A DNA stretch of 62,396 nt, counting the filler, from Collodictyon triciliatum (taxonomy: Eukaryota), in assembly GCA_043381765.1 (NCBI GenBank). It is 13 parts of 13 records of this genome, joined end to end, with 100 filler letters (N's around TTAATTAATTAA, not from the genome) between each part and the next. Parts side by side here need not be neighbours in the genome. Positions count along the whole stretch, not along the records: positions 29,949 to 34,836 come from JBHJMP010005675.1; 12 more parts are not named here. The stretch is one strand, 5' to 3'. The notes under the pieces were generated by a model that saw only the letters and a list, made by a program, of their open reading frames with translations, searched no databases and had not been told where the DNA came from. Position numbers and translations under genes: made by a program. This document shows, one piece after another, positions 29,949 through 32,579 of this stretch (the first letter of the stretch is position 1; each line of letters opens with the position of its first letter).

Positions 29949-32579
29949 GATTTTTAATCCACCTATATACTAGAATGTATCCTCCGTCACACAAGTTTGG
30001 TGGATTGACACAGAAGGGAACAGATATGTAGGCGAAGTTGGTGGTGAGCAAAACACGATGTCCCATCTTTTCTGACTTTGAGTTTTGTAACAAAGTAAAT
30101 GTGTTTTTTTCGGAAAAGGTATTATTTTTAATCGAATGATTAAAATTGTCAAAAAATGACGGACTTTTGCAAATACCAGGAAAGCATAAAGAATATCCGT
30201 CTGAATCAAATTCATTTTTGCAGTTAATACAAGATATAATTCCATATGCTCCAAAATTTGGAGTGAATGTGCCTTTTGGACAGGCATGGCATGATTCCGA
30301 GTCTTTTTTAATTCCCTCTTTTTGATAGAATCCTGAGGAACATGAAATACATGATGACCTCCTTTCTGAGCTATAGGTTCCATTTGGACATGAAACACAT
30401 GATGATTGATTGAATGAGCCAGTTTGATTGTTGAATGTACCAGCTGGACATGATGTGCATGATGATTGACCATCTCTATCGTTCCAAGTGCCTTGTGGGC
30501 ATTCAATGCATGATTTGTTTCCATATGAGCCGGAGTTCGAGTTGAATGTGCCTTTTGGACAAGCGTAGCATGAGCTTGAGTCTTTGATAATTCCTTCTTT
30601 TTGATAAAATCCTGGTGAACATGAACTGCATGATGAGCTTCTTTCGGAGCTGTAGCTTCCATTTGGACATGGAATACATGATGATGAATTAAATGAGCCA
30701 GTTTTATTGTTGAATGTACCAGCTGGGCATAATGTGCAATCGTCTCTTTGTTCATTACCATACGTTCCTTTCGGACACTCAAAACACGACGCCTGGCTTG
30801 TTGAACCAAATCGTGGATTGTATGTTCCTTCAGTGCAAATAGTGCACCCATTCTGACCTGGATATTGATTGTACGAACCAAATTGGCATAGTTCACAAGT
30901 TGATTCGCCTGTTTTTGATGAAAACCTTCCTTTAGGACACGGTTGACAGCTGCTTACATTGGTTGATGCAACATTAGGATTGAAGGAACCAGCTGAGCAT
31001 CTTTCGCAATATTTCCCTCTTGTCAAATTCGAATACGTTCCTGGGCCGCATGGTGTGCAAAATGTTCTTCCTGATTCTTGATTATAGAAACCTAATGGGC
31101 AGTCAAAACATAATGGCTGTCCTTTTGAAGGACTATATGTCCCTGGTTCGCAATCAAGGCATGATATTTGGCCAGTTTTGTTGTTGTATTTTCCTTCTTC
31201 GCAAAAAATGCAGGCACTAACACTTGTAGAACCAGTTGATGGGTTGTATGTTCCAGCTGTGCATGAAAGACAGATTGCTTGACCAGTTGATGGATTGTAT
31301 GTTCCAGCTGCACATGAAAGACAGGCACCAACACTTGTAGAACCACTTGATGGATTGTATGTTCCAGCTGCACATGAAAGACAGGCACCAACACTTGTTT
31401 GTCCAGTAGATGGATTGTATGTACCGGCAGGGCATAAAGAACAAGATGACGTTCCTCCAGCACTATAGCTTCCAGATGGGCATAGTTGACAAGACTTTGA
31501 AACTGAATCATAAAACTGACCAGCGACACAAAGTCCCCAAATTTTGATTGTCCAATCATCACTTCCAGAAACAATTTTTGAGCCATCAAAAGTAAAAGCA
31601 ATACTTCGAACAGCATTTGTATGACCAGCCAATGTGCGAATCAAAGCCCCATCAGAAAGATTCCAAATTTTGATTGTATTATCCCTACTTCCTGAAACAA
31701 TTTTTGAACCATCAAGAGTAGCAGCAGCAATAATAATATCATTAGTATGACCAGTCAAAGTGCGAATCAAAGCCCCATCAGAAAGATTCCAAATTTTAGC
31801 TGTATCATCCCTACTTCCAGACACAATTTTAGAGCCATCAGGAGTGACAGTAACACTGTAAATCCAATCAATATGACCAGTCAATGTGCGAATCAATACC
31901 CCATTGGAAAGATTCCAGACCTTGATTGTTCTGTCATTACTTCCAGAAACAATTTTCGAGCAATCAGGAGTAACAGCAACACTGTAAACATTATTAGTAT
32001 GACCAGTCAATGTGCGAATCAAAGCCCCATCAGAAAGATTCCAGATTCTGACTCTATAATCATAACCTCCAGAAACAATTTTCAAGCCATCAGGAGTAAC
32101 AGCAACACTGTCAACATAATTAGTATGACCAGTCAATGTGCGAATCAAAGCCCCATCAGAAAGATTCCAGATTTTGATTGTGTAATCCCAGCTCCCAGAA
32201 ATAATTTTTGAATTATCGCTTGTAACAGCAATACTTAAAATACTACCAGTATGACCAGTCAATGTGCGAATCAATGCTCCATCAGAAAGGTTCCAAATTT
32301 TGATTGTATTATCGGGCGACCAAGTTCCAGATACAATTTTTGAACCATCAGGAGTAATAAACACACTGGCAACACCACTAGTATGACCAGTTAATGTGCG
32401 AATCGAATTATCTTGCCCTTCTACAAGACTCAATTGGCAATGGAGCATCAATCCTAAAAATATATTACTTAAAATTCTATATAATCTTTAGCAATTAATG
32501 ATACATAATATAAAACAATTAAAATGTAAAACTCACCCAACAGCAACATAGCTGCAAAAGACTTTGAGTTTAATCTCAT
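29949..32579 (-). CDS. Secreted or surface protein: signal peptide, 7 near-identical WD40 repeats, then Cys-rich (Ephrin_rec_like/GCC2_GCC3-type) repeats; 3'-truncated
   Basis: Exon 1 32579-32537 (MRLNSKSFAAMLLL) and an 83-nt intron (32536-32454) are followed by GLMLHCQLSLVEG|QDN, then 7x RTLTGH..V.S...TPDGSKIVSGS.D.TIKIW, then many C..C..GTY units. Confidence 0.85.

Follow-up and report, generated by a model that had tools for sequence, protein, structure and literature searches.

A predicted secreted WD40 propeller on a Cys-rich stalk in Collodictyon triciliatum, a candidate member of a large, recombining recognition family

Why should a WD40 propeller, a module that usually works inside cells, stand behind a predicted signal peptide and in front of a long Cys-rich stalk, with repeats that differ mainly at a few clustered positions? 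This question is raised by a gene of Collodictyon triciliatum (NCBI GenBank assembly GCA_043381765.1) that lies in the window, by which we mean the whole stretch of 62,396 nucleotides that was analysed, made of 13 parts of this genome with fillers of 100 N between them. A first-pass annotation had suggested an extracellular, repeat-shuffling binder for the recognition of prey, pathogen, or self and non-self. The gene's own contig (G000:C5675, JBHJMP010005675.1) occupies positions 29949–34836. The N-linker before it (29849..29948), an artificial and unstranded feature of the assembled stretch, joins unrelated contigs of about 4.9 kb, and the adjoining parts are uninformative about the WD40 gene. 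To our knowledge, the molecular basis of prey recognition and prey choice in phagotrophic protists is largely unexplained.

The gene has the predicted structure at 29949..32579, where it had been placed, and runs on the minus strand. Its ATG is at 32579 and the frame is open until the contig end at 29949, which cuts off the 3' end of the gene; the spliced product amounts to 849 amino acids. Exon 1 (32537..32579, minus strand) is only 43 nucleotides long and carries the start codon and the first half of a predicted signal peptide (residues 1–27, 32416..32579, minus strand). An 83-nucleotide phase-1 GT..AG intron with in-frame stops (32454..32536, minus strand) splits the leader, as had been claimed. 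By a rule-of-thumb reading the predicted signal peptide has a basic start, an 11-residue hydrophobic core (mean hydropathy 2.6), and small residues at –3 and –1. Both leader and intron are kept in paralogues. In 24 close paralogues the mean identity to the gene is 88% in exon 1 and 79% in the next 50 coding bases, compared with 69% in the intron, whose length varies; the introns are not a multiple of three in 16 of these paralogues, and 12 of them have no Met after the intron. This conservation pattern provides good indirect evidence that the leader splice is real. Public sequencing runs contained at most 7% of the words, and the public RNA data held no contig spanning the leader intron. Two exact pieces, of 144 and 137 nucleotides, occur in one freshwater RNA library, with nothing across the intron, so neither expression nor habitat follows from them.

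The leader is followed by seven WD40 repeats that form one seven-bladed propeller (31528..32403, minus strand), with repeats starting at 32403, 32271, 32145, 32019, 31893, 31767, and 31641. Pfam recognizes WD40 seven times in the product (E 2e-65), and the head is a tandem array with a period of 126 bp and 6.8 copies, in agreement with the seven repeats of about 126 bp reported earlier. The repeats had also been called near-identical in DNA. This is not the case: repeats 2–6 are 75–85% identical and are better described as homogenised. Both earlier lists of variable residues, after GH and after SG, agree with the translation, and the variable codons are numbers 10, 12, 28, and 30 of each repeat. 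Over repeats 2–7 the mean identity is 84% at framework codons versus 32% at these four. The blades are of the canonical GH–WD type with only one Cys within them, and six of the seven repeats carry an N-L-S sequon. A single-sequence structural model of the head has a mean pLDDT of 85 and 28 strands, and Foldseek matches it to seven-bladed WD40 propellers at an rmsd of 1.1.

The stalk (30220..31527, minus strand) consists of about 25 CxxCxxG units, of which Pfam reports Ephrin_rec_like 13 times. It includes a duplicated unit with a period of 93 amino acids (30738–30460 and 30459–30232) and, at 31282–31422, a tandem repeat of 60 bp. At the DNA level, residues 587–662 match residues 680–755 with 82% identity. 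The long, internally duplicated Cys-rich region of the first-pass annotation is therefore borne out. The best solved match of the stalk is MST1, a mastigoneme protein of Chlamydomonas (PDB 8tx1, E 1.9e-32). The likeness lies in the long Ephrin_rec_like Cys-rich region and concerns the stalk only. Chlamydomonas MST1 builds a filament, and we know of no WD40 head in that protein.

The last part of the contig (29950..30219, minus strand) encodes a linker and the first blade of an FG-GAP (integrin-alpha-like) propeller, cut at the contig end. The assignment rests on identity to a sister contig, C9489: the last ~90 residues of the product are 96% identical to residues 1–90 of the query domain taken from it (L051), which Pfam names FG-GAP_2 (E 7e-13). 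On C9489, C12831, and C3196 the FG-GAP domain is followed by a second short intron, and the FG-GAP tails of these three sister contigs are 95–96% identical. The final exon of C3196 stops with no hydrophobic stretch, which is why we read the FG-GAP class as soluble. From these sister contigs, the gene product most likely belongs to a class that looks soluble and has no membrane anchor. Its identity to a further sister, C8177, is 75% in the head, 82% in the stalk, and 91% at the start of the tail. Five short contigs (C9489, C12831, C3196, C12407, and C8177) are 90–97% like the 3' part of the gene; C5675 may in truth continue in C12831 or C3196, although neither overlaps it. The same FG-GAP tail also stands behind heads that have no WD40 array, on C3542 (L085), C3500, C2581, and C837. 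The head of L085 has bacterial Ig and cadherin-like domains, and because the tail occurs behind such non-WD40 heads it is a shared module.

Searching the genome with the WD40 head gave at least 169 matches (126 of 1031 candidates scored), and the 150 matches listed sit on 108 contigs, which is a lower bound. The FG-GAP domain gave 49 matches (109 of 109 candidates scored), and for a second type of tail, a membrane module, there were 103 matches, spread over 95 contigs (110 of 113 scored). Of the 108 contigs with a head, 31 also appear among the membrane matches and 17 among the FG-GAP matches, with none in both lists. A further 20 membrane-list contigs were read, 19 with WD40 heads and one cut inside the stalk, so that at least 127 contigs (108 + 19) bear a head; this lower bound excludes another 44 membrane-list contigs. 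The gene is thus one of over a hundred and not single-copy. Four of 20 FG-GAP contigs that were read showed no WD40 array.

The same head and stalk are therefore found with either of two tail classes, FG-GAP (read as soluble) or the membrane module. The module is modelled as nine long helices (pLDDT 92). It matches DUF7630 at E 5.5e-6, just under the cut-off, and its model found no clear match among solved folds (Foldseek best E 0.07; best Z 8.2, rmsd 4.9). An identity as GPCR or channel is not established by Foldseek matches as weak as these. A C-terminal transmembrane domain, which the first-pass annotation had proposed to look for, is present in paralogues in the form of this nine-helix module; for the gene itself, with its FG-GAP start and anchor-less sister tails, it is most likely absent. 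Head size ranges across the family from one propeller to more than 40 repeats. In one giant, on C949 (L066, L088), an open frame 2715 codons long encodes at least 42 WD40 repeats and, at its end, an FG-GAP propeller; another, on C2488 (L123), has about 30 or more WD40 repeats. Most of the long family frames that we read run for kilobases with no intron; HSP90 of this genome has several.

To describe variation across the family, we used 759 repeats in a fixed 42-residue register, which excludes indel-bearing repeats such as the gene's own repeat 1. Entropy is highest at positions 10, 28, 12, and 30 (3.8, 3.7, 3.6, and 3.3 bits), followed by positions 9 and 41. Across positions 9–13 and 27–30, 689 of the 759 combinations are distinct, and Tyr and Trp make up 17% of the residues at the four variable sites. 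A set of 1203 repeats from 120 unrelated public repetitive WD40 proteins peaks at the same four sites, so the pattern of variation alone is generic.

Comparison of dN and dS across repeats and paralogues, which had been suggested as a check, gives signs of positive selection at the four codons. We selected 140 close, disjoint repeat pairs using one half of the framework codons and took dS from the other half; the ratio of dN at the four codons to this framework dS is 2.50 (bootstrap 2.10–2.97). Within the four codons, dN/dS is 1.63 (1.27–2.04), or 1.46 under other tie-breaking, against maxima of 1.47, 1.23, and 1.14 in 25 replicates of a neutral simulation at kappa 1, 2, and 4; the framework has a kappa of 2.6 and an omega of 0.27. 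A simulated omega of 2–3 at the four codons reproduces the observed ratio. Between close repeats the amino acid differs at about 60% of the four codons versus 10–13% of framework codons. Where codons specify the same residue, synonymous differences are 0.13–0.15 at the four sites versus 0.16–0.18 in the framework, and a mutation hotspot was rejected since synonymous change there is not raised. For the 15 closest repeat pairs, pathway counting at the four codons gives a pN of 0.21 versus a pS of 0.24. A codon-model omega of 14 for the four codons was saturated and was discarded. Positive selection on the four codons, at about 2–3 compared with 0.27 for the framework, is likely by this counting method and simulation, in which the repeat pairs are not independent because they come from one short-read assembly and recombine.

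These four sites correspond to those of a known system. The selected codons of fungal HET-E, as described in PMC1805685, are numbers 7, 9, 25, and 27, located in the d–a loop and the b–c turn at the top of the propeller, where each pair flanks a conserved residue. The variable codons 10, 12, 28, and 30 of the present family have the same spacing, offset by three (PMC1805685), and the codons at which the family varies most coincide with the four positions of HET-E recognition, an equivalence that had been proposed from the sequence. In repeat 2 of the model, as read from secondary structure rather than coordinates, position 10 ends the loop before strand a, position 12 lies early in strand a, and positions 28 and 30 are in the b–c turn, which are the places given for the selected codons of HET-E. 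Like the HNWD/NWD genes of Podospora anserina (HET-D and HET-E) as PMC1805685 presents them, the family has homogenised WD40 repeats that are swapped within and between loci. In contrast to those genes, its head is N-terminal behind a leader and homogenisation is weaker, with repeats 75–85% rather than up to 100% identical, and there are over a hundred genes compared with the ten that the same source gives for Podospora (PMC1805685). Only 31 residues, the leader, precede repeat 1, and neither a NACHT nor a HET domain is among the Pfam matches listed (25 of 50 rows); because it has no NACHT domain, the WD40 protein is not an NLR, even though its head would work in the manner of the HET-E sensor. 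HNWD/NWD proteins are cytosolic with a cell-death output, whereas the sequence of this family predicts export.

Signs of repeat shuffling, also proposed earlier, are seen both within and between genes. Among 22 close single-propeller genes, repeats 3–6 of different genes are as distant at the same position (0.129) as at different positions (0.130), with a distance of 0.116 within a gene. For repeat 7, which adjoins the stalk, the nearest neighbour is at the same position in 15.2 of 18 cases versus 2.9 expected. The internal repeats thus behave as if they had no positional memory, and repeat 7 as position-specific. Exact tracts of at least 45 nucleotides are shared by 23 of 693 within-gene pairs; between genes, they occur in 10 of 6401 pairs at the same position and in 34 of 38962 at different positions. 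A halves-versus-interleaved test for recombination inside repeats gave r values of 0.06 and 0.08 and was without power. By these signs the head framework is kept similar family-wide by repeat exchange within and between genes.

Heads and tails are also decoupled. In 15 pairs of membrane-class genes, head dS is 0.27–0.46 throughout; membrane-module dS in the same pairs is 0.30–0.50 in six and about 2 or more, or saturated, in nine. Heads are younger than tails, because head dS is low in all pairs while module dS reaches saturation. Where defined, omega of the membrane module is 0.06–0.16, which indicates purifying selection on the tails. In a tree of 32 head–stalk junctions, six FG-GAP rows are scattered, with weak support, among membrane rows; six changes are needed for these six rows, of which starred branches force only two.

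Does the head act outside the cell? Of the 108 head contigs, 89 were analysed for a leader with a permissive script, some of whose models are wrong. A phase-1 leader-intron model was obtained for 70 and a model in another phase for 10, and nine had none, leaving 19 of the 89 with no phase-1 model; a hydrophobic core is present in 64 of the 70. An N-x-S/T sequon after the conserved Trp occurs in 421 of the 759 family repeats compared with 40 of the 1203 public ones, although this excess may be one inherited event. Elsewhere among eukaryotes, this membrane module is joined to heads with RCC1, FG-GAP, PQQ, TIG, and LRR domains, among others, and the N-terminus of CRMPa is described as extracellular (PMC9670195). 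With a predicted leader kept in paralogues, variable sites on one face, and more than a hundred genes, none of the three refuting conditions in the first-pass annotation went against the idea, the extracellular reading of this WD40 protein gains support, and we consider the export of a variable-faced binder, as predicted, to be highly probable.

The membrane class resembles the CRMP design, a likeness that rests on description and on a motif match by eye. In apicomplexans and ciliates, this design consists of a Cys-rich ectodomain and nine helices, with two EGF-like domains next to the helices in its core, and is a proposed heterodimeric contact sensor for exocytosis (PMC9815656, PMC9670195). 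As those sources describe them, CRMPs share with the membrane class a leader and ephrin-receptor-like Cys repeats (PMC9815656, PMC9670195). The short Cys-rich cap and the modelled nine helices of the class resemble the CRMP core, and the Cys, FL-G, and YWE-K motifs of the module are, by eye only, colinear with the TgCRMPA core (PMC9815656). However, the few CRMP genes described there have heads of the MAR, Kringle, or lectin type (PMC9815656, PMC9670195), whereas the head of this family is a variable WD40 propeller; moreover, the tail of the present gene is most likely of the FG-GAP type, with the membrane module absent. In PMC4046975, as far as that source goes, the name CRMP refers to an unrelated protein. 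The DUF7630 or TRP-like module in proteins of Rigifila, Mantamonas, and other protists is about 23–34% identical and is joined to modular propeller or Ig heads. None of the best 150 public relatives of the membrane module carries a WD40 array (one 9.6-bit single match falls in a PQQ-type protein), and 21 of these 150 that were scanned have RCC1, FG-GAP, PQQ, TIG, LRR, filamin, DOMON, or CUB heads, or no named head. A public 293-residue fragment is 63% identical to the module, so close kin exist in environmental data.

Other known proteins share parts of this architecture. The ectodomain of plant CRINKLY4/ACR4 likewise has a signal peptide, a seven-bladed propeller called WD40, and a Cys-rich domain outside the cell (10.1101/2020.08.10.245050). 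As described there, its blades are BLIP-II/UVR8-like with a disulfide each, and it has a kinase (10.1101/2020.08.10.245050), while the stalk of the present family is much longer and its blades vary; the complete family tails that we read contain no kinase domain. The closest fold and sequence type is that of repetitive bacterial WD40 proteins (PDB 2ymu; Thermomonospora, PDB 5yzv), which vary at the same positions and rarely have the sequon. Whole-protein searches were swamped by such generic repetitive WD40 proteins, and among the 120 matches listed local alignments covered at most 58% of the query, so these searches say little about fused relatives. In a metagenome scan with the head–stalk junction, WD40 repeats were absent from all 80 loci retained out of 262, which is weak evidence since only the stalk pattern was matched, and all scores were below 0.9 in an Atlas search with head and stalk. 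We found no paper on a WD40 head with a Cys-rich stalk in the open literature; subscription papers and bioRxiv supplements could mention one. The family is real and expanded in this lineage, and the way in which it combines known parts is apparently undescribed.

The reading that we favour, with a probability of roughly 0.55, is that the product is secreted in soluble form and belongs to a recombining repertoire that acts outside the cell in the recognition of prey or parasites. The comparisons show a framework kept alike by repeat exchange, four top-face codons per blade that are driven apart, and tails under purifying selection. The head at the stalk tip would bind foreign surfaces, either prey cells or parasites. 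Membrane forms could signal contact in the manner of CRMPs, and soluble forms, this gene included, could serve as bridging or agglutinating adaptors whose constant FG-GAP end docks on the cell's own surface or on glycan. Diphylleids feed on algae, cyanobacteria, and flagellates (10.1101/199125). A bolder version, which we hold only tentatively, pictures a predator near the base of Amorphea with an antibody-like WD40 repertoire, in which genome-wide recombining, positively selected heads are swapped between CRMP-like membrane receptors and secreted, opsonin-like FG-GAP forms to identify and capture diverse prey or parasites. The family offers over a hundred candidate receptors in membrane and soluble forms, with a defined binding face and small heads that can be expressed and screened. 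If the reading is true, the HET-E mode of diversifying a WD40 face would work outside the cell too, and the CRMP design would reach beyond parasite invasion to serve as a variable sensor in a free-living lineage that branches deeply.

The same four codons and a similar concerted evolution are found in the allorecognition genes het-d and het-e, and the family might be an extracellular counterpart of HET-E/HET-C, its heads reading a polymorphic partner on conspecific cells in mate choice or the avoidance of cannibalism. Such self or kin recognition is unlikely in our view, since over a hundred dispersed paralogues would better suit a broad repertoire than an allelic identity locus and our data, from one genome, identified no polymorphic partner. 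The tips might instead diversify as a variable surface coat or decoy, so that viruses, parasites, or predators cannot bind them. Long Cys-rich stalks, many sequons, and a large dispersed family fit a coat, and escape too yields dN/dS above 1; its probability is nevertheless low, as most of the variation is concentrated at four codons on the canonical binding face rather than spread over the whole surface, 17% of the residues at those sites are Tyr or Trp, and the conserved nine-helix module suggests signalling. We likewise doubt that these are structural or adhesive surface proteins, of a hair, an extrusome, or a glue, in which the loops are merely tolerant and the family has expanded by birth-and-death drift with gene conversion. 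MST1 as the best solved match of the stalk, the variation of the same loops in unrelated WD40 proteins, and near-equal pN and pS in the closest pairs all favour this possibility. However, amino acid change at the four codons is frequent with no rise in synonymous change, and the neutral simulation falls short of the observed values at realistic kappa.

An artefact is very improbable, be it contamination among the contigs, wrongly joined repeats, or a leader-like start that arose by chance on a protein that is not exported. It would fit the AT-rich third positions (GC3 of 0.30 in the family versus about 0.8 in HSP90 frames), the fragmented assembly, and public RNA with no splice-spanning contig. 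Yet family genes share contigs with GC-richer ordinary genes, intact family frames reach 3243 codons, and positional memory is lost at 13% divergence, too old for assembly joins. In addition, the nearest named relatives of the membrane module are from Rigifila and Mantamonas, in the same supergroup as the HSP90 match. The nearest named relative of the genome's HSP90, a single marker compared by identity and not by tree, is that of Diphylleia rotans (84%); one other record reaches 92%, and none of the rest exceeds 77%. By this marker the host is probably a diphylleid (CRuMs) predator. Contamination was rejected on the shared contigs and on these relatives.

A few further observations concern composition and the surrounding sequence. 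Across the family frames of 89 contigs, CpG falls to 0.56 and TpG/CpA rises to 1.40, compared with a CpG of 0.87–0.88 in HSP90 loci and other window contigs; either methylation of these genes or their codon composition may account for the depletion. There are two close cytosolic HSP90 copies, on C907 and C1088, and the frame on C1088 lacks a block of the middle domain, by an extra intron or a deletion. Elsewhere in the window, a zf-RVT retroelement-like fragment lies at 18830–19870 (minus strand), an unassigned frame resembling, by eye, one on C1198 (L231) at 9994–10638 (plus strand), and, at 11568–12737 (minus strand), a hydrophobic frame of 389 codons that Pfam does not match and that may encode a multipass membrane protein. 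Separate contigs carry a Glycosyltransferase family 92 frame (57461–59143, minus strand), an NHL-repeat frame (51161–51709, plus strand), and a Glucodextran_C-like frame (5971–6498, plus strand). A multi-exon gene with SHIPPO repeats at 25879–28400 (minus strand) is consistent with a flagellated host.
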